This document shows positions 3,962 to 28,294 of a stretch of 28,488 bases of DNA, piece by piece. This DNA is from a bacterium (GTDB taxonomy: Bacteria; Zhuqueibacterota; Zhuqueibacteria; Oceanimicrobiales; Oceanimicrobiaceae): the NCBI GenBank assembly GCA_046757165.1, contig JBHHXT010000048.1, positions 1-28,488 of the forward strand, written 5' to 3'. The position numbers and the translations under genes are program-made. Every line of letters begins with the position of its first letter. Position 1 is the stretch's first letter. The notes below the pieces were generated by a model. That model ran no database searches, had not been told where the DNA came from, and saw only the letters and a program-made list of their open reading frames with translations.

Positions 3962-6900
3962 TCAGCGACGCTGACTGAGTTTTGGCAAGCGCTTTTCCAC
4001 CGGGTCGATGAGAATCTCGATGCGGCGGTTGATCTGTCTGCCGAACGGCGTGTTGTTATCGCTTTCGATAAAGATCGTGTCCCCTTGTAAGCGGAACGTG
4101 AACGGAAAGCGCCGGTCGTGTTTCTGACCGCTGACCAGCTCGTAGGTGATTCGATTGAATTCGTCCGGGTTGTGTTTGCGCAACGTTTTCAGGAAGAGTT
4201 TTCTGTCGACGGCCATGTTGAAGGATCCGTTTTCGCCCTCGCCGATCACCCCGATGTTGTGGAATTGTCGCTTGATGCCCCGAACCAGTTTGGGATACCT
4301 TCTTGCAAACTCCTTGTAAAAGTTCTGCGCCCGCAGCAACGACAGGTCATGATTGTACACCGAGTCGCCGATGGCACAGGCGTGACCGACAAAATCGAGA
4401 TTCCGGATGGCCTGGCGTCGCAGCCTGTTTTCGACCTTTTGGGCCACACTTTGCCAATCCAGGTTGGATTCCGGCCTATCCTTCCTGAATTCTGCCACGC
4501 CGATGATGATCTTCTGGTCGAGAAGATTTCTTTTTTCCGTTGCCAGAAGCGCCTGCCGCGGTTTTGTCCGGAAGATGCGCCCGTGCACATCCTGGAGGGA
4601 AATAGAGTAGGTCACGGTCCGGTTCTGCAGGTCGCGTCGCAGGACGTCGTCCAGTGTCCAGATGACGTGTTCCGTGTCAGCGGTGGCGTATGTGAAGTCA
4701 AGCGCTGTATATTGCCGGGCATCCGAATAGATGGCGAGTCTGCCCGTTTGGAGCGCTACAAAGCCGCGCACGGAGGAGGTAAACGTCACCGGCAGAAACG
4801 TCTTGGATTTTGGCAGTGAGACCGGCACGGAGTAGAAAAGCCGGACTTCCTCCTGCTGCCGCCCGGTGCCCCGGGCGCTAAACACAGAGATTCGCACAAA
4901 CCGGCGCTCCTGGGCCACCCATTTTCGGTCGGGGTCAGCGGCGGCGTCGCCGCTGCCGAGGGTGACGTCGGGTCGCCTTCCCTTTGCAATGTCGATGAGG
5001 GTTGGGTCGATACCGAGCCGTACCAGCTCTTGCTTCACTTCCTGCGCGCGTGCTTGCGCCAGAGGTTTCGGTTCTCCGTTTTCCAGATCCACAAAGCCAC
5101 GCAGGCGCAGGCGTAAATTTTTCTCCTTCTTGAATCTGGTCGCCAGCACTTGCAGCGGTGAATAGATGAGCGATGAGCCCAAGCGCTTGATGTCCGCGCG
5201 GCCGTGCTCAAAGTAAATTTTGGGGATAAACGGCAGCTCGTACTCGTAGAGAGAGTCGATTTGCGTCACCGCTTCTGCCGAGGTCAGGAAGATGCCGCGC
5301 GGGATGGTGTAGAAACTGCCGTCCTGGTCGTTGTTGCTCTCGTCATATTCAGGTAGCGTGTTGTGCGGGTCCAGCTTTGCTGTGATGCGATACAGGCCGG
5401 GCGCGTCGGTGCGCCAGGGGACGATAATCGTGGTATCGGTGTCCACTGCCAGCTTAGAAATAACCACCTGTTCAAACCATTTGGCTTCGTGGGCCCCATT
5501 GCCACCGTTCAAAGCGGATTCACCATTTGAACCATTCGCAGCACGCCCGCTCGAAGAGCCGAGACTCGTCGGCGGCGCACCGGCGCCGGTAGACTCGAAG
5601 GTCTGTGTGAGCATGGAGTCATAGATGGCCAGCGTGGCCTCTTCGGCAACGGTCTTGCCCTTGTTGGAAATCGTGATCGCCAGATCCCCCTGATAGCTGC
5701 TTTCTTCAATCCAGGGATGGGGGTGAAAGCGCAGATCCGTAATGTACAGGTCGGGCAGGACCTTGAAATGTCCCAGGGGCAGCCCCTTTTTGTCGGCGAA
5801 GCGCACATGGTTATCCTGGTCGTACGCTGCCACGGTCCAGTAATAGACGCCCGGCAAGAGGTCCTTGTGAACGTAGTGCACGCGCCCATTCTCCATCGAA
5901 ACCTCTGCTGTGACATCCCGTGCGAAGGATGCTTTTGTGTGACTATCGTCCGGCAGTCTCAGCTGATCTGTTCGTTCCCTGGTGGCGACATCGGCAAGTG
6001 CAGCGATGACCACACTATCTTGCGTGGCCGGCTCGACTCTTTGCAGCAAGAAGATGTACCCAACCTCGTCATAGAGATCCGGATCCTGCGCCGCCGTCCA
6101 GATGAACTCCACCTCGCCGTTGCCCATGTTTTCGCCCGAGAGCGGCGCGACAAAGTGGAACGCCTCTGGCGCAGTGGGAAAGTGGCTGAGAGCGGCCTGG
6201 TAGGTGGTTTCGAAGATTTCCTTCTTGCCAACGCCGGCGAAATCGACCCGCAGGGCTTTGTTCCGGCCCGGGAAGCTGTGCAGCGGCGAAGCATGGTCGT
6301 CGAGTCGCAGACTGAATCCAAAAGAAAATCTGTTCAACGACCGGCGACTGAAGGTGTAGCCGCCGCGCAACGCCAGCCGGTAGTTCCAGGATAGCTCGGA
6401 CCCGAGGCTGAAATGCGCCTTTTCGTCACGGACTTTCTTATAATCCGCCGACAGTTGCAGCTGCACGCCCCGATGCGAACCAAGATTCACCGAAATGCCC
6501 GTTTGAACAGAGCGCGGAAGGGGCGTCTCGCTGTTGATGAACGTGAGGGGTTTGCCCAAATTGGTGACGGAGAGGCCAGCCGACAGAATGGCGTACTTTA
6601 GAAACGGCACGTCGAGCTCGAAACGCCGGGAGCGATAAAGCACGCCAACATCGAAGACCCAGGAGCTGGCGCTGAATTGGTCCAGCTCGCTTCTGAAATA
6701 TTTGACATTGCCACCCAGAGCAAGACGTTTCGAGAAGGCGGTCAAGGGCGTACCCATGCTCAAGGTCAGCAACAGGTCGTTGGCAGAGGCCGCCGGCTGA
6801 CCGCGGTTGGTGCTGTCAAATTCGCGCACGCCTTGATACTGGAGACCCATCGCGACATTCATTCGCCGGCTCCAGGGCGTTCGCAGTCGCCGACCGTAGG

Positions 6901-7198
6901 AGAGCGAAAGCTGGTAAGAGTCCGCAATCCATTCCGTGTAGGTGGTCGACCATTGCCATTCGCGCAAGGTGGCGGTGGCCGCCGGATTGGCGTACAGGGC
7001 GTGCATGTCATCGATGACCCCAGTGACGGTGCCGGCCATCCCCTGATGGCGTGCGCCCGGCAGCACTTTCAAGAAGGCTGCACCTGAATTGATTTGCGCA
7101 AAGGCCGGGCGCAGGGGGACAAAACATGTCCAGAGCACCAAAAGAGCTAAACTCGATGCCGGCTGCCTGCGCGAACGTTGTGTTTTGCCAGAGCTCAT
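3962..7198 (-). CDS. PorV/PorQ-family outer-membrane barrel fused to FN3/Ig-like, CARDB and two OmpA-like domains (1078 aa)
   Basis: Signal peptide ending AFA-Q; GAAFLKVLPGARHQGMAG and ALYANPA at the N-terminus, ALGGNVKY, FDVGVLY, NLG..PLP and LALRGGY (PorV/FadL-like barrel); LPDLYITDL...ISNKG and LDPHNTLPEYDESNN (CARDB); GHACAIGDSVYNHDLSLLRA and GRQINRRIEI (OmpA_C). ATG 7198 overlaps the upstream TGA (ATGA). Confidence 0.8.
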   Translation of the reverse strand: MSSGKTQRSRRQPASSLALLVLWTCFVPLRPAFAQINSGAAFLKVLPGARHQGMAGTVTGVIDDMHALYANPAATATLREWQWSTTYTEWIADSYQLSLSYGRRLRTPWSRRMNVAMGLQYQGVREFDSTNRGQPAASANDLLLTLSMGTPLTAFSKRLALGGNVKYFRSELDQFSASSWVFDVGVLYRSRRFELDVPFLKYAILSAGLSVTNLGKPLTFINSETPLPRSVQTGISVNLGSHRGVQLQLSADYKKVRDEKAHFSLGSELSWNYRLALRGGYTFSRRSLNRFSFGFSLRLDDHASPLHSFPGRNKALRVDFAGVGKKEIFETTYQAALSHFPTAPEAFHFVAPLSGENMGNGEVEFIWTAAQDPDLYDEVGYIFLLQRVEPATQDSVVIAALADVATRERTDQLRLPDDSHTKASFARDVTAEVSMENGRVHYVHKDLLPGVYYWTVAAYDQDNHVRFADKKGLPLGHFKVLPDLYITDLRFHPHPWIEESSYQGDLAITISNKGKTVAEEATLAIYDSMLTQTFESTGAGAPPTSLGSSSGRAANGSNGESALNGGNGAHEAKWFEQVVISKLAVDTDTTIIVPWRTDAPGLYRITAKLDPHNTLPEYDESNNDQDGSFYTIPRGIFLTSAEAVTQIDSLYEYELPFIPKIYFEHGRADIKRLGSSLIYSPLQVLATRFKKEKNLRLRLRGFVDLENGEPKPLAQARAQEVKQELVRLGIDPTLIDIAKGRRPDVTLGSGDAAADPDRKWVAQERRFVRISVFSARGTGRQQEEVRLFYSVPVSLPKSKTFLPVTFTSSVRGFVALQTGRLAIYSDARQYTALDFTYATADTEHVIWTLDDVLRRDLQNRTVTYSISLQDVHGRIFRTKPRQALLATEKRNLLDQKIIIGVAEFRKDRPESNLDWQSVAQKVENRLRRQAIRNLDFVGHACAIGDSVYNHDLSLLRAQNFYKEFARRYPKLVRGIKRQFHNIGVIGEGENGSFNMAVDRKLFLKTLRKHNPDEFNRITYELVSGQKHDRRFPFTFRLQGDTIFIESDNNTPFGRQINRRIEILIDPVEKRLPKLSQRR

Positions 7199-9732
7199 CT
7201 TGCCAGGATAACTTTTTTCCAGCATTGCAGGTTGTCCGAGCGCAACACGATAAGGTAAACTCCGCTGCCCGTCTCTTGCCCGTTTGCGCTCAGCCCGTCC
7301 CAGAGAAAACGGTTGCGGCCGCGGTCGAACGTCCGCTCAACCAGCGTCTTGACGTGGTACCCGCTCAGGTCATACACATCCAGCCGCACGCTTTGAGGTT
7401 GCTGCAATTCGAAGTCGATTCCCAGGGGAACGCCTCTCCCCGGCCGATACACATTGAAATCGAGTGTGAAGAAACCGCATCCTTCCCGGAACTGCGAATC
7501 TGGTACGTGAGTCATGTCAGGCGCGGGGATGGCGAATACACTCTCGAGCTGAACCGAAACATTGTTGGAGAGCTTGGTAGAATCCTCGTTGTCGGCGTGA
7601 ACAAGGGCGCGATTGACGAGCGCCAAATTGGGCTGCGTGATGTGCCGCGAAACAACGGCCACAAAGGCGAACGTCGTATCTGCCAGCGGGGCCAGATTGC
7701 CGAGACGCCAGACCAGCGTGTCTCCGCCGGCCAGGCCCCCCACCTGCACCGAGTCCGGCAGCACATCCTGCACGACAACCTGCTGCGCTTCAAGGGCTTC
7801 TTCGTTGCGCACCGTTACACGATAGGTGATGGACTCACCGGCGATGGCATACCAAAGCGTGTCTGCGTCGCGAACTTCAAACGAATCAGTTTTCACAGAT
7901 TGCGAGATGGAAAGGTCGGTTAGCCTGGTGACCGGCGGTCGTCTGAGCGCAAACGTGGTGTCCACCGCCAGGTTGTTTTCGAGAAGACCGGGCGTCTCGT
8001 TCCGGGCCTGCACGCCGACGATGTTGACGAGGGGGTGAAGGCCAACCGGCACATCATCAGCCACGACGGCATCAAAAGTGAGGATTGTGTCAGCAAACGC
8101 TGGCAGCTTTGGTAAGCGCCAGTCTATCGTTGCTGACACCGGGTTTGTTACAGCCGAGACGAAGGTCGGCAGCGAGTCTTGAATCATCACCTGACTGGCG
8201 GCCCGGTTGCCGAGATTGTGCACAAAGAGGGCGTAGGAAATCGTACCCCCTGGTTTCGCGAACCAGACGGTGTCTTCACCAGAGAGGGCGAAAGAGTCTG
8301 TTCTTGCCGACTGCGATACCGACAAATCGACGATCCTGAGTTTCACGAAATTGAACACCGTGTCCGCCGCCGAGTTGTTCTGGAGCTTTTCGGGATCATC
8401 ATTGTCCGATTCTACCGATACCGTGTTGATCAGAAGGTTTGTCCCGGTGGGCATCTGTGGCGCAACAGTCACCGCGATTCTCAGAGTTGTATCTGCCAGA
8501 GGCGGAAGTGTGCCCAGGGTCCAGTTCAGCGTGTCGCCGGCCATACCGTCCGTTGCTTGAACCGAATCCGGGAGCGCATCCTGGACGGTGACGTTCTCGG
8601 CAGCCACCTGGCTCGAGTTGGTGATGGTGAGAAAATATGAGAAGGTCTCCCCTGCCCTGGCAAACCAGATGGAATCCTGGCCCTGTACGACAAGTGAATC
8701 GGTGCGGATGCGCTCGCTCACCCCCACGTCGGTCATCGGAGGGGGCGCAAACAAGACAACCGTGGCGTTGTCGATGTTGTTTGCATCGGTCGTATCACAG
8801 GCAGAAGCGACCATACCTATCGAGTGAATCTGACGCGGTAAGGAGTCTTCTGCCTGCATTTGCGCAGCTTTGCCGGTAAGTTCGATAGTCAGCATTTGCG
8901 CCACGGCAAGTGAATCGACATGCCAGAATATGATTTGACTTTGCTCGCTGGCGACGATGGAATCAGGCGGCAAGGTAAAGGCGGTCGCATCGAATTCCAA
9001 CCGCTCTGAGACCTCATCGGTGATGGTCATGTCGCGTGCCGTCCCCGGCCCATGGTTGGTGACCTTCAAGGTCAAAGAAAACGGGTGGTCGACAGCGGCT
9101 GAATCGCTGTTGGCAGTGTGAATGATTTCTAAGTCGAACGTCCGTTTGTTGACAAAGTGGAGGACAAGTTCAAACAGGTGAACACTCTCGGGCCCGTCAA
9201 AACCATCGCTGTCCGGATTGATGAACTCAGGATACTCGTCAGCGATCAAGGCATAGTGATTCAGGATGATGCGGTTGATTCCCTCGCGGAAATAGAAGAC
9301 ACCGGCATCGCGGGTGGTGTCAAATTCAGCCTTTGGCAAATCTCCAACGATATTGACGACCCTGAATTCACCCGCATTCGGGTCACACAGTCCAGCGGAG
9401 GAGCTGTCCGGGTAGGCGACTTGCAAAAAGAAACTCTCGTTGGATTTGCCGCCAGAGTATTCGACCCCGGCGAAGATTCGATAGTAGCCAGCCGTGCTAA
9501 TCTCGACGCACGCGGCCTCGATGGTCATCTCGTCTTCCCCTTTGTCCACACGCACGACGATCTCGTCCCGGTCCAATTCGATGCCAAACGTATCGCCCGG
9601 CGTCGAGACGGGCACAGGAAGGCAGTCATCTGATTGGCTCAAAAGAGGGAGGGGCAGGAGAAGGAACGTCGGGAGAAGAAGAATGTAGAGCGCTCCTGCA
9701 AGCAGGGCAAATTTTGGTGCTCGTGTTCGCAT
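7195..9732 (-). CDS. Secreted DUF11-repeat surface protein with C-terminal FlgD-Ig / T9SS-type sorting domain (845 aa)
   Basis: Long hydrophobic signal; four repeats of D(L/V)x(I/V)...(Y/L)xLxVxN...V.vQD.LP...W.LG.L...N...NN; C-terminal VRLDVYDLSGYHVKTL...WDG....G....SGVYLI......KKVILAR. Confidence 0.82.
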   Translation of the reverse strand: MRTRAPKFALLAGALYILLLPTFLLLPLPLLSQSDDCLPVPVSTPGDTFGIELDRDEIVVRVDKGEDEMTIEAACVEISTAGYYRIFAGVEYSGGKSNESFFLQVAYPDSSSAGLCDPNAGEFRVVNIVGDLPKAEFDTTRDAGVFYFREGINRIILNHYALIADEYPEFINPDSDGFDGPESVHLFELVLHFVNKRTFDLEIIHTANSDSAAVDHPFSLTLKVTNHGPGTARDMTITDEVSERLEFDATAFTLPPDSIVASEQSQIIFWHVDSLAVAQMLTIELTGKAAQMQAEDSLPRQIHSIGMVASACDTTDANNIDNATVVLFAPPPMTDVGVSERIRTDSLVVQGQDSIWFARAGETFSYFLTITNSSQVAAENVTVQDALPDSVQATDGMAGDTLNWTLGTLPPLADTTLRIAVTVAPQMPTGTNLLINTVSVESDNDDPEKLQNNSAADTVFNFVKLRIVDLSVSQSARTDSFALSGEDTVWFAKPGGTISYALFVHNLGNRAASQVMIQDSLPTFVSAVTNPVSATIDWRLPKLPAFADTILTFDAVVADDVPVGLHPLVNIVGVQARNETPGLLENNLAVDTTFALRRPPVTRLTDLSISQSVKTDSFEVRDADTLWYAIAGESITYRVTVRNEEALEAQQVVVQDVLPDSVQVGGLAGGDTLVWRLGNLAPLADTTFAFVAVVSRHITQPNLALVNRALVHADNEDSTKLSNNVSVQLESVFAIPAPDMTHVPDSQFREGCGFFTLDFNVYRPGRGVPLGIDFELQQPQSVRLDVYDLSGYHVKTLVERTFDRGRNRFLWDGLSANGQETGSGVYLIVLRSDNLQCWKKVILAR

Positions 9733-11929: not shown

Positions 11930-12000
11930 CGCACGCCATCTGTGGGGACAAACCGGCCTGGCACCTGAATGTCAAACCCAGCAAAACATGGAGAATGGTT

Positions 12001-12882
12001 ATGCTGCTATGCAAATCCCACCCTGCACGATTCACCGTGATCGCAATCACCCTGTTAAGCTGCGCTGTCGTCAGCCCAGGCCAAATGGTGGCAGCGGCCC
12101 CTGTTCAAAAATCCGTCGTCCGCGCGTGGTTCACCACCAAGATAGTCGATCGCGAGCCCGTGGACAACATTGACACGCTCACCACCGAAGCCTCCAAAAT
12201 CTACTACTTTACGGAGCTTCAAGGTCTGAGCGGCAAAACCATCAAACATCGCTGGCTTTTTGACGACAAAACTCTCGCAGAGGTCTCCTTTATGATCAAA
12301 GGGTCGAGATGGCGGGTGAATTCCAGCAAGAATCTGATCAAGGACTGGCTGGGCGAATGGACGGTCGAGGTCGTCGACGAGGCCGGTACCGTTCTCCATA
12401 CCGACCGGTTCTTCTTTGCGGAAAAGCCAGGAGGTGCAGCCATCGATAGCCAACCTCCCGAACCTGCACCTGCGCATACAAGCGCCCCACGGACGGCCGA
12501 AGCGCGGGCGCGGGAGAGCGCAGAAACCACCGGGAGGGCAGAAAGCGCGCCAGCCTCCAGCCATATCAAGAGAGCCGCATTTGCCACCGCGATTGTCGAC
12601 CGGGAGCCTGTGAACACGGTCGACACCTTGTATACGGATGTCACAAGAATATTTTTCTTCACGGAAGTCAAAGATATGGCCGGCCAGAGGATCATGCATC
12701 GCTGGCTGCATGGCTCGGAAGGCAAAGCCGAGGTTTCGTTCAACATCGGCGGGGCCAGGTGGCGGGTGCATTCCAGCAAGAATTTGCTCCCTGAGTGGAC
12801 CGGCGAATGGCGGGTTGAAGTCCTCGGCCCGGACGGCTCCGCTCTGATAGAAAAAAAGTTCATCTATCTCAAAAAACCCTAA
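12001..12882 (+). CDS. Exported protein with two tandem DUF2914-like domains
   Basis: Signal peptide; two copies of F.T.IVDREPV...(Y/F)FTE......I.HRW......VSF.I.G.RWRV.SSKNL...W.GEW.VEV, joined by a Pro/Ala/Glu-rich linker. GGAG at 11990-11993 favours ATG 12001 over 11995. Confidence 0.82.
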   Translation: MLLCKSHPARFTVIAITLLSCAVVSPGQMVAAAPVQKSVVRAWFTTKIVDREPVDNIDTLTTEASKIYYFTELQGLSGKTIKHRWLFDDKTLAEVSFMIKGSRWRVNSSKNLIKDWLGEWTVEVVDEAGTVLHTDRFFFAEKPGGAAIDSQPPEPAPAHTSAPRTAEARARESAETTGRAESAPASSHIKRAAFATAIVDREPVNTVDTLYTDVTRIFFFTEVKDMAGQRIMHRWLHGSEGKAEVSFNIGGARWRVHSSKNLLPEWTGEWRVEVLGPDGSALIEKKFIYLKKP

Positions 12883-21618: not shown

Positions 21619-23763
21619 ATGGCAGTTTTTATCAAGGAGGTCAGTGTACAAAATCTCGGACCCCATATTCGTCTGGCGTTCCAGCTCGGCCGGTTCAATC
21701 TCATTTACGGCCACAACGAAAACGGCAAAACCTATCTGGTGGAGTTCATCATTCGCTCTCTCTTCAAACACGTGAAACAATGGAGCCTGCGGGAGAATGA
21801 AGGTCGCGGCAAGGTCAGCGTCGCAGGTCTGGAGCCAGGCGGGCTGGTCGAGTTTTCGCCGGCCTCAGAAAACAAGCTGGAGGACTACTGGCAAGAGGCG
21901 CAACCCGGCTTGCCGGCAGACTTTTCCAGGCTGCTGGTGGTGAAGGGCGCCGAAGTCGACCTGGCGAAAGTCGCCGGCGGTATTGACAAGAACGTCCTGA
22001 AGCGACTGCTCTCCAACCGGGCCGTCCTGGATAGCATCCAGAGAACCATTTCCAAGACGATTCAAGAGTCGGCGATGGAGAACGGCATTCTGACGGGCCC
22101 CAGGCGGGGTGAGATGAAAGAAAGAACAGAGCTCGAAGAAAGGCTCAGGAGGTTCGAACGCTTATTTGCGCAGTTGGACGACAGCTACTCCGGCGGAACG
22201 CGAAAAGAGCTCGAAGATGAAATGAAACGGCTGCAAGCGAAAAAGAGTCAAATGGAATTGGCGCGCCGGCACCTGGCCTTCAAAACAGATGCGGATGTTC
22301 GCAAGTTGAACGGGGAGCTGAGTCAGCGGTCAATGGACAAGATCATCGAGCTGCGCAGCGATTTGTCCATCTACAGGAACAAACGTCTCGAGCATAGCCA
22401 AAAACAAAGCCGCCAAAAGGAGGCGGCGCGCAGGAGCGAGCATTACGACTGGCTCAAGAGCGCGCAGAGAGTTTATCAAGAAACCCTGGCGAGCGTGGTG
22501 GCACAGCCGCCCCGGACCCCGGTCGTGGCTGCGGTCGCGTTGATCGTGGGGGCCGGGATTCTTTCGTATTTGCGCCTGCCACTCTACGCGGTCATCTGCC
22601 TGGCCGGCGCCCTGGCAGCCGGCACATTCTATTTCAGAAGATACCGTGACCTGTTGCAGCACGCCGCTGAAAATCAGGAGCTCGAGACGATCCGAAAAGC
22701 ATTCTTCGACTATTTCAAGACCGAGCTGACCGGACTCGCAGACATTGTGCACCATCTACAAGGGATGGAAGAGGACTACAACACGGCGCAACTGCTGGAC
22801 AAACAACTGCAAGATGACCAGGTGCAACTGCAAGCCGCCAGATTGAAGCTCTCCGAGCAAATCTACCAATTGACGGGAGAAAAGACGGAGCCTGAGGCGT
22901 GGGATGATGTATTGCGCGAGCTCGAAGCCCGGGCCAGGGCTCTGGAGGCCCGTGTTCGCGACAAGGAGCTGGATTTGGCGCAGCTGAATGTGGATGCTTC
23001 CGATTACCTGGAGACGGACCCGTGGGTGGAGTTCAGCAAACAAAAGCTGGCAGAAGCGGAACAGGAACTAATGCGCACCAGGCAGAGGCTCGATGACGAG
23101 ACGCACAAGCTCGACAGTCTCAAGCATATGATTTGCCAACAGACCGGGGACGATATCTCGGCCTCATGGGACAGGATCATTCCAAGATTGCGGGAAATGC
23201 AACAGACAACTCTGGCCGCGTACCAGTCCAGGACCGCTGAGATTCTGGGGAAAATTGCGGTCAACGAGGTGGTGCAGGAGCTGCGAAAAGATGAGGACAG
23301 CAAGATACTCGAAAACCTGCAATCAGAAATCGTGCAGAAACCCATCTACGAGCTGACTCGCCGTTATGACCATTTGACCCTGGAGTCGGAGAGGCTGGTC
23401 GTTTCCGACCGGTACAACATCTTCACCCTCAGCGAGCTGAGCACGGGAGCGCAGGAGCAAATTCTGCTCGCTCTGCGCATTGGGCTGAGCAAGAAACTGA
23501 TGCGAGAGGAGAGCCTGTTTTTGATCCTCGATGATGCCTTCCAATACTCCGATTGGCAGCGGCGCCAGTGGTTGGTCGACCAGGCGGCGAAGCTGGCGCA
23601 GGATGGCTGGCAGATCATCTATTTTACCATGGATGATAATATCCGCACGCTCTTTGAGCAGAAGGCCGCGCAGTTCGGTGAGGAGTATCGCCTAATCAAC
23701 CTCAATCGCAGCAGGAAAGCCCTCGAGCAGATCGATCTGCTCAGTCGAGATTTGGGTTATTGA
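21619..23763 (+). CDS. Rad50/SbcC-like SMC-family ATPase (YhaN-like) with a central hydrophobic hairpin (714 aa)
   Basis: Walker A GHNENGKT, long coiled coils, signature LSTGAQEQ, LALR, Walker B LILDDAF, QIIYFT. ATG 21619 follows GGAG and the nuclease stop. Confidence 0.87.
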   Translation: MAVFIKEVSVQNLGPHIRLAFQLGRFNLIYGHNENGKTYLVEFIIRSLFKHVKQWSLRENEGRGKVSVAGLEPGGLVEFSPASENKLEDYWQEAQPGLPADFSRLLVVKGAEVDLAKVAGGIDKNVLKRLLSNRAVLDSIQRTISKTIQESAMENGILTGPRRGEMKERTELEERLRRFERLFAQLDDSYSGGTRKELEDEMKRLQAKKSQMELARRHLAFKTDADVRKLNGELSQRSMDKIIELRSDLSIYRNKRLEHSQKQSRQKEAARRSEHYDWLKSAQRVYQETLASVVAQPPRTPVVAAVALIVGAGILSYLRLPLYAVICLAGALAAGTFYFRRYRDLLQHAAENQELETIRKAFFDYFKTELTGLADIVHHLQGMEEDYNTAQLLDKQLQDDQVQLQAARLKLSEQIYQLTGEKTEPEAWDDVLRELEARARALEARVRDKELDLAQLNVDASDYLETDPWVEFSKQKLAEAEQELMRTRQRLDDETHKLDSLKHMICQQTGDDISASWDRIIPRLREMQQTTLAAYQSRTAEILGKIAVNEVVQELRKDEDSKILENLQSEIVQKPIYELTRRYDHLTLESERLVVSDRYNIFTLSELSTGAQEQILLALRIGLSKKLMREESLFLILDDAFQYSDWQRRQWLVDQAAKLAQDGWQIIYFTMDDNIRTLFEQKAAQFGEEYRLINLNRSRKALEQIDLLSRDLGY

Positions 23764-24949
23764 TGCGCTCGACCAGCGGAATGGGCAAGTACTGCCAGAC
23801 CCCCTCGAGGTGAAACTCACCAAATCGTCTCTGGTCGACCAGCCTCAGGCCTCGCGCAAAGAGCGTTTTGTCCCGCTCGGCCTTGATATCTTCGAGAAGC
23901 AGCGTCTGAAGGGAAGAGAGGCCGAAAGCGGCGCGCACCCTGTTCACCCGGCCCAATGCAGATGGAACCCCGCCGGTATTGAATTCCAGCTCGGCCAGCA
24001 TGAGCTCATTTTCCTGCCACGAGATGAAAGGAATGGGGGAATCGACGCGCGGATAGCGTGCCTGTCGCCAAAAAACCGTCTCTTCGTCCAGTCCCAGAAT
24101 CGGCTCAATTTTGATTCGTGTCGTTTCGGCCGGGTCCGTGGTGACGCAGTCGACCAGGAGAGAGTCGACCACGAACTGTGTTTGTCCGCGCCCGGCTTGC
24201 GACCAGTAGAAGTTGGCGGACTCGGAGTTGTAAAGGGCCTGAAAAGGGGGATCTCCTTCTTGCAATCCGTCCCGGGCAGAAGACCGCGCTGCCGATTGAT
24301 TGCCGTTGAAAAGATGGCATCGGGCAATAAGGGAGTTGAGCATTCGACGCTCATAGGCGCTGTTGGTATGGTCGAGCGCTTCTTGCAGGGATGCGAGGGC
24401 GAGGGCGTACATTTCATCGGAAGGAATGAACGGTCCGTTGTCGATGACTCCGCCGCCCTCCGTTTCTGACAAGCCGGTGTAGGTGGCATAGAGATATCTG
24501 GCAATGCCGCCATAGAGATGGCCGGTGAAGAAGACTTGTCGCCGTAGCTCCAAATCGACAAATTCAATCTGGCGCGCCCGTCGCAGCAAATCATCGGCGA
24601 GGAACCTCAGCTCACCGAGCTGCAGGAATTGCGCTTCGACTGCGCTGTTGTCGAGCTCGATCTCGCCAAAATCGATATCCTCGAAACTGACGAATGTCGC
24701 GCCAGGCACGTTGGGGTCGAAGAAAAATGCATCGGACAAGGCATCTGCGAGCAGGATCGTTTGATCGTAGGTGGTCGCGAAGCGTTGCTGCACCCCGGCG
24801 ATGAGAAAACTCATCTGACTCTCGTCCGTGAGCTTGTCGCTATCGATCTCGTCGATCGGGGGGGTGACGTTGTCGACAAAGTCGCTACAGGACAGGGAGA
24901 TCGCGATGAGGAGATAAACCGCAACAGAAATGAGGATTGATTGCTTCAT
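23741..24949 (-). CDS. SusD/RagB-like outer-membrane lipoprotein
   Basis: Lipoprotein signal ending SLSC (Cys21); helical TPR-like body (LIARCHL), ENELMLAE, VNRVRA, ERDKTLFARGLRLVDQRRFG, LPIPLVERINNPN; lies downstream of a SusC-like gene. Confidence 0.85.
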   Translation of the reverse strand: MKQSILISVAVYLLIAISLSCSDFVDNVTPPIDEIDSDKLTDESQMSFLIAGVQQRFATTYDQTILLADALSDAFFFDPNVPGATFVSFEDIDFGEIELDNSAVEAQFLQLGELRFLADDLLRRARQIEFVDLELRRQVFFTGHLYGGIARYLYATYTGLSETEGGGVIDNGPFIPSDEMYALALASLQEALDHTNSAYERRMLNSLIARCHLFNGNQSAARSSARDGLQEGDPPFQALYNSESANFYWSQAGRGQTQFVVDSLLVDCVTTDPAETTRIKIEPILGLDEETVFWRQARYPRVDSPIPFISWQENELMLAELEFNTGGVPSALGRVNRVRAAFGLSSLQTLLLEDIKAERDKTLFARGLRLVDQRRFGEFHLEGVWQYLPIPLVERINNPNLD

Positions 24950-25114
24950 AATACGTGCGCCGCCTTAGGCTAGTTGACAGAACGCGATCTTACACAGTTT
25001 GTAACTATGTATTTCTTGTCGTCTGAACATCGATCTTTTCGAGTCTCAACTTCTGATTTCAAAAATACGGTTGCAAGCCGTGCTGGAGCAGGTCATATCT
25101 GAGCTCAGTACCAG

Positions 25115-28100
25115 CTAAAATGAAACGCTCAAGGTCATGGCATACGTCCTCGGATTCTGCAAGGTGAAATAATCCTGCCCGCGCTCCAGATCGCGTGCGC
25201 CGGACCAGTTGACCTCCACTTCCGGGCCACTGTACCTGGTGACGGTCAGAAGATTGTGCGCTGACAGCGTAATGGCGATGTCCTGAACCAGTTGGCGACC
25301 GCGCAGGGCTTTCGACAGCAAGCCTTTGAAACTGTAACGCAGGCTCACTTCCCGCAGTTTGACGAAGTCGCCCTGCTCGATGAAATTCGCATCCAGCAGG
25401 GGATCCATTCTGGCGAACTCTTCGGCAGCGGCGATATACTCCGGCGTGCCCGGCGTGAACGGAATGACGTCCTCGACCGGCTCGACATCCAGAGCGACGC
25501 CGTCCGCCTCAAAGGTTCCGGCGAGGCCGAGCTGAGTCGCGAGCAGGTTGTATTTCGGGTTGTTCCCGGCCAGGTAGGTGAGCGATTTGCTGCCGTTCCA
25601 GATTTTGTGACCGGTCGCCCAGTCAGCCAGAGCGTAGAGGCTCAGGTTCTTGAAGAGACGGAGATTGAGAGCAAGCGAGCCGGTGTAAGGGGGCACAGGA
25701 TTGCCCAGCGCCACAGGTGCCTCGCCAAAATCCGGGCCGAAATACGTGCCGTCGTCATTGAAGAGCGCCCCCAGAAAGGGCTCGGTGTAGAATTCATGCT
25801 TCGGCAGCCCCTCCTGGATCACGTTCAACGCAAAACTGTCGAACACCGGCTGGGCGGCGCCGAGATCGACCACTTCGTTTTCCTGCCAGTTGTTGATCAG
25901 CGTCAGGGAGAGATCGAAATCGCGTCGGTGGACGACGGAGGCATGCAGCAGCGTCTCGATTCCGCTCCCCGTTATTTCGCCGATGTTCACCGGCGTGGGC
26001 GGCAGTCCGGTCGAGGGCGAGTTGATGAATTCAAAGATGCTGTCTTTTGCCTTTTGTTTATAGTAGGTAAATTCCACCGCAAAATGGTTCAAGAACTCGG
26101 CATCGAAGCCGATCTCGATCTCTTTTACCCGCTCGGGTTTGATCTTGTCATTGCCGCCCGTGCCGGGCACACCGCCAGCGCCATAAGCACCCGATTCCGG
26201 CCGGAAATGCAGATTGATGCCATCCAGGGAGTTCGGGAGAATGCCTGTTTCGCCATAAGCCGCTCTGAGCTTGAACAGCCCGAAGAAAGCCGGCACGTGC
26301 CGGAATTTGTCCAGGCGCACGGCAAAACTGGCGCCCGGATAGAAAATCGAAGACGCCTTTCGCCCGATACGGCTGGCGTAGTCGCGTCGCAATTTCAAAG
26401 AGAGATAGTATCGGTCGGAAAAGGCGAGGTTGGCTTCCCCGAAGAGGCCCGCCTGCCGTTCGTGCAGCGTGGTCTCATCGATGGTGGCCTGTTGCGTGCC
26501 AGCCTTGATCGTGGTGACCAACTGGGTCAGAAAATCATAGCGCTGGGTTGAAAAGGTGTTCACTTTGCGGTCGAAAAGTTGCACGCCGCCCACCAGAGAG
26601 AGGTGCAGATCAGACAGCGGGTGGAGGTCGAGTCTGCTATCGAAACTGTAGGTCACCAGCCGGCCCTGGCGCGTGAAGTGGTTGCGCAGCCCGGAATCGA
26701 AGCGCTCCTGCTGGTAAGTTTCATTGACGGGATAGTTCTGGTCCTGGCGCAAGTCGTGATCATCGATGCCGAGACTCATGCGCGCTGAAAAGATGGGAAT
26801 CGGCTGGTATTCCGCCCGTACCGAGGCAACAAAGCGGTTCGATTCGTTCTCGTCCTCGATATTCTCGATGGCAGAGCGGCCGCCGCCAACGAACAAATAG
26901 GACGTGGGATTGATGGTCGTGTTGATCAGATAGCCGAACAGGTTGTTGTCATTGGAAGGTCGTTCCACGGTACTAAAAGTGTAGCTCGAGCTGAGGCTGA
27001 GCGTCAATTTGTCGTTCGGAACGACATCAAAGTTGGCACGAACGTTCTTGCGGTCCAGACGATTGGGTTCGAGAATGCCTTCTTCCACCCGGCTGTCAAG
27101 GGCTGCAAAATAACGGATGAAATTCGAGCCGCCGGAGGCGCTCAGGCTATTCTGAACGATCGTGCCCGTTCGGAAGATATCGTTGGCGTCGCGCGCGGAG
27201 AGATAATCTTTGCGGCTATAATCGAAGGATTGTTTGTTCCAACCGGCGGTGAGTTTATAGTTGAAAAACACCCCGCCCGCATTTCCGGCACGGTAGTGCC
27301 CCCGTTTGGTGGTGATCAGGACCACACCGTTGGCGCCATCGGTGCCATAGGAGACCGCGCCGGCCGGCCCTTTCAGCACCTCGATGCTTTCGATCTCCTC
27401 CGGGTTGAGGTCGGCCAGCAAACTGATGCCCTGGCCGCCGACTTCAAAGCCGAGCACTTCAGCGTTGTCCACGCGCACGCCGTCAACGTAGATAACCGGC
27501 TGCTCATCGCCATTCAAGCCTCCGCCGGAGCGCATCGTGAACCTGAAACCTGCGCCGACATTGCCGGATGCTCGCTTGACCTGTACACCCGCGAGCTTGC
27601 CACGGATCAGCTGCGACGTGGTTCTGTAGTTGCTCTGGCTGGTGTAGCCGCTGGCCGGGATGCGCGAGACGGCGACTTCTGCCACGGCCTTCGAGGTCGT
27701 CGAGGCGATGCCGGTCACAACGATCTCCTCGCCCCGAAGAATATCTTCCCTCAGGGCGAAGTCAACCTCGTTTGCTTTGACCGACACACTTGATTCCAGC
27801 GGCCGGTACCCTTCCTTCATCACTTGGAGGATGTATTCACCCGGGGAGAGATCGGCGAACAGATAGGAGCCATCCCTGCCTGTCTTCACAATGCGACTCG
27901 TCCCTTTGATGGAAACCCGAATCCCGGCAAGCGGCCGGCCGGTTTTGTCATCAACGATCTTGCCTGAAATCGCACCGGTCAGTTTGATCTCGATTTCAGT
28001 TTTCTCGGTGTGATAGCCGATGAACGAGGCGGTCAATGTATAGTTGCCAGGCGGAATGCGTGCGATGAGAAAGGAGCCGTCCTGCCTGGCTGCGGCTCCA

Positions 28101-28294
28101 AGCCGTGTTCCCTTGACGACGACATTGGCGCCAGTCAGCGGGGCCCCGGTGCGGCTGTCGACGACTGTGCCGGAAACAGAAGAGGTCGCCTGGCCGAAGA
28201 GGGTGTGAGCCAGAAAAATTTGAATGCAGGTCGAGGCGAGGGAGAGTAGAAGATTGGCACGGCTTGCCGTAAGGAAAGCTCTCCTTAAGTCCAT
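25115..28294 (-). CDS. SusC/RagA-like TonB-dependent receptor with two N-terminal carboxypeptidase-regulatory-like domains
   Basis: Signal peptide; EEIVVTG; plug PVIYVDGV and DLNPEEIESIEVLKGPA...YG..GANGVVLITTKRG; KLRAAYG, IKPERVKEIEIG, FVKLREVSL, PRTY, terminal Phe; AGGAGG upstream. Confidence 0.92.
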   Translation of the reverse strand: MDLRRAFLTASRANLLLSLASTCIQIFLAHTLFGQATSSVSGTVVDSRTGAPLTGANVVVKGTRLGAAARQDGSFLIARIPPGNYTLTASFIGYHTEKTEIEIKLTGAISGKIVDDKTGRPLAGIRVSIKGTSRIVKTGRDGSYLFADLSPGEYILQVMKEGYRPLESSVSVKANEVDFALREDILRGEEIVVTGIASTTSKAVAEVAVSRIPASGYTSQSNYRTTSQLIRGKLAGVQVKRASGNVGAGFRFTMRSGGGLNGDEQPVIYVDGVRVDNAEVLGFEVGGQGISLLADLNPEEIESIEVLKGPAGAVSYGTDGANGVVLITTKRGHYRAGNAGGVFFNYKLTAGWNKQSFDYSRKDYLSARDANDIFRTGTIVQNSLSASGGSNFIRYFAALDSRVEEGILEPNRLDRKNVRANFDVVPNDKLTLSLSSSYTFSTVERPSNDNNLFGYLINTTINPTSYLFVGGGRSAIENIEDENESNRFVASVRAEYQPIPIFSARMSLGIDDHDLRQDQNYPVNETYQQERFDSGLRNHFTRQGRLVTYSFDSRLDLHPLSDLHLSLVGGVQLFDRKVNTFSTQRYDFLTQLVTTIKAGTQQATIDETTLHERQAGLFGEANLAFSDRYYLSLKLRRDYASRIGRKASSIFYPGASFAVRLDKFRHVPAFFGLFKLRAAYGETGILPNSLDGINLHFRPESGAYGAGGVPGTGGNDKIKPERVKEIEIGFDAEFLNHFAVEFTYYKQKAKDSIFEFINSPSTGLPPTPVNIGEITGSGIETLLHASVVHRRDFDLSLTLINNWQENEVVDLGAAQPVFDSFALNVIQEGLPKHEFYTEPFLGALFNDDGTYFGPDFGEAPVALGNPVPPYTGSLALNLRLFKNLSLYALADWATGHKIWNGSKSLTYLAGNNPKYNLLATQLGLAGTFEADGVALDVEPVEDVIPFTPGTPEYIAAAEEFARMDPLLDANFIEQGDFVKLREVSLRYSFKGLLSKALRGRQLVQDIAITLSAHNLLTVTRYSGPEVEVNWSGARDLERGQDYFTLQNPRTYAMTLSVSF

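Follow-up and report, generated by a model that had tools for sequence, protein, structure and literature searches.

A two-gene module that couples a DUF11 cargo to a PorV-family barrel fused to OmpA-like domains: a candidate dedicated carrier of type IX secretion

In secretion systems of type IX (T9SS), the C-terminal tails of type A all use PorV, and type B cargos are followed downstream by the genes of their cognate carriers (PMC12618676); only type B tails are said to have cognate PorP/SprF carriers (PMC12618676, PMC10994853). The mode of binding between PorV and the C-terminal domain (CTD) and its energy requirement have been described (PMC10994853). A complex of PorE, PorP and PG1035 is known from Porphyromonas gingivalis (PMC9143113), and the genes Fjoh_3952-3951-3950 and four similar operons of Flavobacterium johnsoniae each encode a type B cargo, a PorP/SprF barrel and PorE (PMC12618676). 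Static, wall-anchored trios of cargo, carrier and PorE were put forward there as a speculation (PMC12618676). Among PorV-family barrels, the pairs PorQ-PorZ and PorV-PorU retain the tail, and the tails of PorU and PorZ are known to be uncleaved (PMC5562754).

The window, i.e., the whole stretch of 28,488 nucleotides analyzed here, carries two genes that resemble these systems in layout, and all features of this module lie on the minus strand. The cargo gene (gene 1, 7195..9732) encodes 845 aa with a predicted signal peptide, a tip domain, four DUF11 repeats and a cognate CTD. The gene for the barrel-stalk-OmpA fusion (gene 2, 3962..7198) encodes 1078 aa if translation begins with the ATG of position 7198, and the first ATG, at 7225, is an alternative start that gives an ORF of 1087 aa (3962-7225). 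Stop and start overlap in ATGA (7195..7198, tcat in the letters of the forward strand), which likely results in translational coupling of the two genes. A secreted DUF11 protein with a sorting-type CTD that overlaps the next gene had been described in the first-pass annotation, and both ORFs and the overlap were confirmed. Among 75 related loci, the two genes overlapped in 27 (24 by -4, as in the window), lay up to 30 bases apart in 36 and farther apart in 12. Signal peptides were predicted by eye for both proteins, and the Gln at position +1 of the fusion was invariant in all 29 aligned homologues. The architecture of the fusion is not a product of chance, since 28 further proteins aligned across 98-100% of its length with 31-54% identity. 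Scans of the module for promoters and terminators stayed at chance level. Elsewhere in the window, a GH39 glycoside hydrolase gene lies downstream of the module on the opposite strand (829-2457, +) and was not seen beside the module in nine related loci listed. Two DUF2914 domains were matched in another product of the window, which is predicted to be secreted (11995-12882, +). In a SusC/SusD-like pair (23741-28294, -), a TonB-dependent receptor is accompanied by a lipoprotein that matched SusD weakly.

The first part of the fusion is a barrel of the PorV/PorQ family with an N-terminal plug (6176..7096). The family model NF033709, with a cut-off of 90 bits, matched the barrel alone at 136.8 bits and the whole fusion at 132.7 bits (residues 38-300), and it matched the barrels of all 79 related loci at E<=0.001. 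Unlike the orthologues PorV and PorQ, the barrel scored far below their own cut-offs (NF033710, 47.9 vs 250 bits; NF033711, 74.7 vs 220 bits). TIGR03519 did not match the window barrel and gave weak matches in 4 of 79 relatives, so membership in PorP/SprF was rejected. Of the domains that had been proposed for an HMM scan, PorV (at the level of the PorV/PorQ family), CARDB and OmpA were recovered and PorP/SprF was not. The AlphaFold2 model of the fusion was built from 29 sequences (mean pLDDT 79.8, pTM 0.50); it shows the 14 strands anticipated for the N-terminal part, as long strands in mature residues 47-307 together with the plug, followed by separate beta-sandwich and OmpA-type domains, whose packing is unreliable because of the low pTM. 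As the structure searches showed, PorV of F. johnsoniae was the closest match to the barrel (Z 32.9, rmsd 3.0, 281 aligned residues) and ranked first with both Foldseek and VIA-align. FadL came next (Z 28.6), and FadL and BAM-associated barrels have the same fold (Z 25-28.6). The outer loops of the barrel are short. A barrel with an even number of strands has its C-terminus in the periplasm. The even strand count and the OmpA and LysM content of the family both point to an extension that would lie in the periplasm, as had been supposed, and not outside the cell. The C-terminal tail of SprF is likewise periplasmic (PMC12635249). Short matches that consist of a barrel only resemble truncated fragments by eye.

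The remaining part of the fusion forms a predicted stalk with two OmpA-like domains. An FN3/Ig-like domain (5756..6172) directly follows strand 14 and was found in 80 of 80 loci, with a query that itself contained this domain; the FN3-like label comes from the predicted strand pattern, with no HMM match. A CARDB domain with a low-complexity insert follows (5306..5755; PF07705, match at residues 576-624; Z 12.7 to 3idu). OmpA-like domain 1 (4871..5233, residues 662-741) matched PF00691 at 28.8 bits against a cut-off of 27.2, and its strand-helix pattern in the model fits the OmpA fold. The secondary structure of the model places a beta-sandwich (4523..4834) between this domain and OmpA-like domain 2 (3998..4519), which was matched by NF053585 and NF053612 around residues 904-966. 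A PorV/PorQ-like barrel followed by about 740 residues of FN3/Ig-like, CARDB and two OmpA-like domains, as first described, was thus borne out by HMMs and the structure model.

The residues of PorE that bind peptidoglycan are Asp576, Asn584 and Arg591 (PMC7192894), where neither Asp nor Asn is dispensable (PMC12773672). Neither OmpA-like domain of the window fusion holds the complete triad, each lacking one residue. Asp and Arg are invariant and Asn is missing in domain 1. Asn and Arg are invariant in domain 2, and Cys takes the position of Asp in all 29 main-subtype homologues. This Cys, at the Asp position of the peptidoglycan pocket, is the sole Cys of the mature fusion. The complete Asp/Asn/Arg motif was present in variants such as L109, L151, L153-L155 and L161-L163. 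An OmpA domain was found in 78 of 80 fusions, the exceptions being L169, which runs into a contig end, and L122. The L122 fusion has an in-frame stop past the FN3-like domain (465 aa), which is either a split gene or a sequencing error. In a scan of 36 deliberately divergent fusions, all retained an OmpA match (two of them below the cut-off) and seven added LysM; one of these proteins, P0162, may lack the barrel. From these sequences, stalks appear to be reshuffled across relatives while the OmpA domain is retained. The 36 of 36 OmpA matches, the added LysM domains and the full motif in several variants indicate that the anchor is under selection. Binding to the cell wall is likely for the family and, because of the degenerate OmpA motifs, less sure for the window member; the degenerate motifs of the main subtype would count somewhat against strong binding to peptidoglycan.

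The cargo begins with a tip domain of about 165 aa (9142..9636), for which no family match in Pfam and no structure match in the PDB was found. A homologue of this domain scored 0.87-0.89 against CBM6/CBM35 in the Atlas, below the threshold of 0.9, and this is taken as a lead. Among the cargos of 78 relatives, a good part of them incomplete in sequence, the tip domain occurred in 25. In the same genome, a second copy (E 4e-20) lies at the C-terminus of a 595-aa protein (G000:C228:5921-7708), and database matches of similar size to this protein carry PEGA domains. The tip is followed by four DUF11 (Ig-like) repeats with approximate boundaries (7534..9141; PF01345, E 5.7e-44, four stretches; TIGR01451), which are predicted to form a stalk. 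DUF11 was present in 43 of the 45 cargos scanned, among 56 complete cargos in all, and a vWA domain in 19 of the 45; two further cargos are built of tandem-95 repeats. Both cargo length and tip vary widely between loci. These sequences would fit a build common in adhesins, in which the repeat stalk varies in length and the tip can be exchanged.

The last 98 aa of the cargo form the cognate C-terminal sorting domain (7198..7491), which overlaps a FlgD_ig match (cargo residues 767-832). As in type A, this C-terminal domain of about 100 aa is predicted to be an Ig-like beta-sandwich, and a Lys close to its end, in the terminal strand, is conserved (K93, invariant in 79 of 79 tails). The type A model TIGR04183 gave the window tail 18.4 bits against a cut-off of 23, and two of eight related tails passed when scanned alone. 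Type B membership was rejected, as TIGR04131 had no match at E<=0.1 among nine tails. The PNPF motif occurred in 0 of 78 cognate tails, and 72 of 79 had a terminal Arg. The tail model (pLDDT 96.5) was closest to PorU (Z 11.3) and PorZ (Z 10.6), matches that lie within 1 Z of unrelated Ig folds. Cys752 and Cys837 of the window tail have counterparts as a pair in part of the family: 23 tails hold the pair, one holds a single Cys and 55 hold none, which suggests a disulfide staple in one subgroup.

An HMM of eight foreign cognate tails ranked the window cargo first among 145 C-terminal matches, with 105 bits vs 57 for the next. In tails outside the training set, with training loci excluded and five duplicate loci dropped, the cognate HMM outscored the canonical HMM in 73 of 73 cases (median 121 vs 49 bits). 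By these scores, the tail belongs to a private subtype, which a genome mostly has once beside many ordinary tails. Shared tails partly reflect orthology, because most cargos belong to one DUF11 family. Most cognate tails adjoin the preceding domain with little Pro-rich linker (Pro 2% vs 10%). The window cargo has a short Pro-rich linker ahead of its tail, so this cargo may be cleaved by PorU.

To follow the module across the phylum, 167 genomes were searched with two markers. Both were found in 139 genomes, a fusion match only in 8, the tail only in 0, and neither in 20; these counts include kin and are not independent. The FN3-CARDB region was matched in 147 of the 167 genomes, and CARDB by itself may account for the weakest of these matches. 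Thirty candidates were scored in each genome with the cognate-tail profile, which was matched in 139 at E 1e-22, mostly once per genome. From 150 matches listed, 80 loci were picked by hand for spread over families and for paralogues, one of them without upstream DNA. A cognate-tail gene lay directly upstream of the fusion in 78 of the other 79, and in the last (L171) it lay one gene farther upstream. Homologous fusions therefore do stand beside CTD genes, as the first-pass annotation had expected, and the module is real and phylum-wide, a wider range than that annotation had allowed for. Some genomes hold two to four paralogous modules. SprA was present in the majority of the 20 genomes that lack the module, among them G071, G152 and G166, which are roughly 100% complete. 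One locus (L045) has a title naming Cyclobacteriaceae; 301 genomes of the corresponding phylum gave two weak partial matches. Named homologues were mostly labelled KSB1, which makes KSB1/Zhuqueibacterota the likely phylum of the window. The NCBI labels Calditrichaeota and Cytophagia were not counted as a wider range, since one 90% cluster mixes labels. The module also appears to be unpublished: no characterized example had been known at the outset, and a full-text search of openly accessible main texts found no paper on such a fusion and none linking KSB1 with type IX secretion. A list of FCB phyla that may have a T9SS does not name KSB1 in the passage concerned (PMC11285876), and a term search of PMC11683472 gave no mention of secretion.

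The T9SS genes that had been named for a search of the host genome were found in part. Genes for SprA and PorU were present, GldL, GldM and GldN were not found, and GldK matched only below the cut-off. SprA_N was matched in 154 of the 167 genomes at a strict E of 1e-20, which missed the window genome, whose SprA was found by a separate search. GldL, GldM and GldN were matched in 0 of 4 genomes of the phylum, with the positive control detected, and GldM in 0 of 167. The phylum thus has SprA but no detectable GldLMN motor, although remote homologues may exist.

The window genome also holds 16 PorV-family genes above the cut-off and 163 C-terminal tail matches, 130 of which have the canonical motif. 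With a motif definition set after the data had been seen, 13 of 18 PorV-family loci followed a gene with a non-canonical tail, and canonical tails preceded such a locus in 0 of 106 testable cases. These numbers point to private barrel-tail pairs as a general habit of this genome, among which the present module is the one with OmpA. On six contigs (C114, C119, C49, C10, C72 and C47; loci L002, L005, L006, L007, L008 and L003), the same three-gene layout is repeated, in the order of a large TonB-dependent-receptor-like gene (judged by eye from its C-terminal end), a protein with a non-canonical tail and a stand-alone PorV paralogue. Four further PorV-family barrels carry C-terminal extensions (C17:22636-24591, C70:8819-10927, C8:36469-38772 and C51:16474-17718), three of them helical or TPR-like and one SH3-like by eye, and three of the four follow a gene with a non-canonical tail. 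At C89:8395-13633, the one PorP-like barrel of the genome (39.5 bits), which is extended by about 300 aa, directly follows the gene with its sole type-B-like tail (28.5 bits, under the cut-off).

Pairing of barrel and tail was also examined by covariation. In 79 paired rows, a sample of low power, the maximal z was 6.15 against a mean of 6.26 in 30 shuffles, so that true pairs gave no signal above shuffled ones. The similarity matrices of barrels and tails were correlated (Spearman 0.54, reached by 0 of 2000 permutations), and a test with paralogues gave 19 of 21. Since the genes are adjacent, both results show co-inheritance only and were rejected as signs of co-evolution.

We consider it fairly probable that the fusion acts as a dedicated T9SS carrier that is not recycled, binding the tail encoded upstream, holding the cargo on the surface and tethering the pair to peptidoglycan. 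Sec would export both proteins across the inner membrane, judging from signal peptides seen by eye, and they would be made in a ratio of about 1:1 if the overlapping genes are coupled. The barrel with its 14 predicted strands would insert into the outer membrane, its extension reaching into the periplasm. SprA would let the cargo out, and the private tail of the cargo would be bound by the outer loops of the barrel, by analogy with PorV and PorQ-PorZ and from the gene linkage. The tail would then escape cleavage by PorU and the OmpA domains would bind the wall, so that the DUF11 stalk with its vWA or CBM-like tip would be fixed on the surface, where adhesion is a likely role. Passage of the cargo through SprA, its capture by the barrel, retention of the uncleaved tail, peptidoglycan binding and adhesion are the steps that we infer. 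Display is supported by the linkage in 78 of 79 loci, the absence of tail-only genomes (0 of 167), the private tail, the preference of PorV-family loci of this genome for non-canonical tail genes and the retained OmpA domain. Further support comes from the similarity of the tail model to two known uncleaved tails, from the scarcity of Pro-rich linkers before most cognate tails, and from the precedent of the cargo-PorP-PorE complex and operons. Against display, covariation of barrel and tail stayed at the level of shuffled pairs, neither OmpA-like domain of the subtype has the full triad, the window cargo has its Pro-rich linker, and the PorU and PorZ matches are close to those of unrelated Ig folds. 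In addition, shared tails partly reflect orthology, adjacent genes can be co-inherited without binding, and a carrier tethered to the wall must still reach SprA in a genome where no GldL/M/N motor was detected. A far-reaching version of display, which we regard as doubtful, describes the phylum as having a T9SS without GldLMN, a private-tail code and one PorV-type barrel per tail; the module would then be a wall rivet, and an adhesin caught at SprA would be fastened across the outer membrane to peptidoglycan, perhaps by a covalent bond of the invariant Cys that stands in for the binding Asp.

The same genes could also serve as a shuttle only, in which the barrel takes the cargo from SprA, PorU cleaves the tail, the cargo goes free or becomes linked to LPS, and the stalk holds the barrel near the translocon. 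PorU is indeed encoded in the genome, the tail keeps the terminal Lys of type A, the window cargo has its Pro-rich linker and PorV itself recycles (PMC5562754). However, that linker is missing in most relatives, and the overlap of the two genes, with a single barrel for each cargo, suits stoichiometric use, an argument also made for type B pairs (PMC12618676), which makes a mere shuttle unlikely. It is rather unlikely that the fusion and its partner are a structural part of the T9SS that anchors or assists the whole machine at the wall for many cargos, like PorE-PorP in P. gingivalis: a widespread, mostly single-copy module would suit that role, but SprA persists in most genomes without the module, including complete ones, paralogous modules occur in some genomes, and cargo length and tip vary widely. 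Display without a wall link in this subtype, with degenerate OmpA domains used for oligomerization or protein contacts, possibly via the lone Cys, would explain the missing Asn of domain 1 and the Cys for Asp in domain 2. It appears improbable to us, as both domains keep an invariant Arg and the motif is intact, or LysM is added, in sister architectures. A FadL-like transporter or general outer-membrane tether, with the extension perhaps outside and the neighbouring gene incidental, would agree with the fold shared by FadL and BAM-associated barrels. This last reading is highly improbable and is largely refuted by the linkage; in addition, PorV exceeds every other match by more than 4 Z, the barrel has short outer loops, and an even number of strands leaves the C-terminus on the inner side.

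In published work, one PorV serves all type A tails, whereas PorV-family barrels here pair one-to-one with type-A-like tails. The natural fusion of such a barrel with a putative wall anchor lends independent evolutionary support to the speculative static anchor of cargo, carrier and PorE, and the module offers a two-gene unit for testing it. With 78 natural barrel-tail pairs, including paralogues of the same genome, the code of specificity is open to tests. How carriers are freed from SprA becomes a question too, in a phylum without a detectable GldLMN motor.

In comparison with known systems, the PorV shuttle of F. johnsoniae (6h3i/8gl6) has the same fold with a plug, and its cargos share the conserved terminal Lys of the tail (PMC10994853). 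However, PorV is recycled and serves all type A cargos, whereas here one barrel stands beside each tail subtype and carries an extension of 740 residues. PorQ-PorZ is the closest precedent for a PorV-family barrel that holds an uncleaved tail (PMC5562754). PorQ-PorZ and PorV-PorU are housekeeping parts of the sortase or attachment complex of P. gingivalis, with stand-alone barrels and no wall anchor, and differ from the module in this respect. Fusion of carrier barrel and OmpA domain recurs in databases without publication, in clusters of PorP/SprF-CARDB-OmpA (commonest taxon Zixibacteria) and PorP/SprF-OmpA (Bacteroidota). In the Atlas, one cluster matched the present fusion family with a score of 0.99, and clusters of PorP/SprF-OmpA fusions stood at ranks 2 and 14; the latter differ in their PorP-type barrels, and their taxa rest on two to three members each. 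In the cargo-PorP/SprF-PorE systems, as at our locus, the cargo gene lies just upstream of the gene for its barrel; there, the barrel keeps the cargo, and an OmpA_C domain has been proposed to anchor it to the wall (PMC9143113, PMC12618676). A single polypeptide combines barrel and anchor here, where Bacteroidota have separate proteins, and a PorV/PorQ-family barrel with a type-A-like tail stands in place of PorP and TIGR04131. The stalk here is FN3-CARDB-Ig, whereas PorE is a TPR/WD40 lipoprotein, and an HMM domain scan of the fusion found none of the PorE-type domains. The module would thus work like the cargo-PorP-PorE anchor, yet it is not a member of that family.
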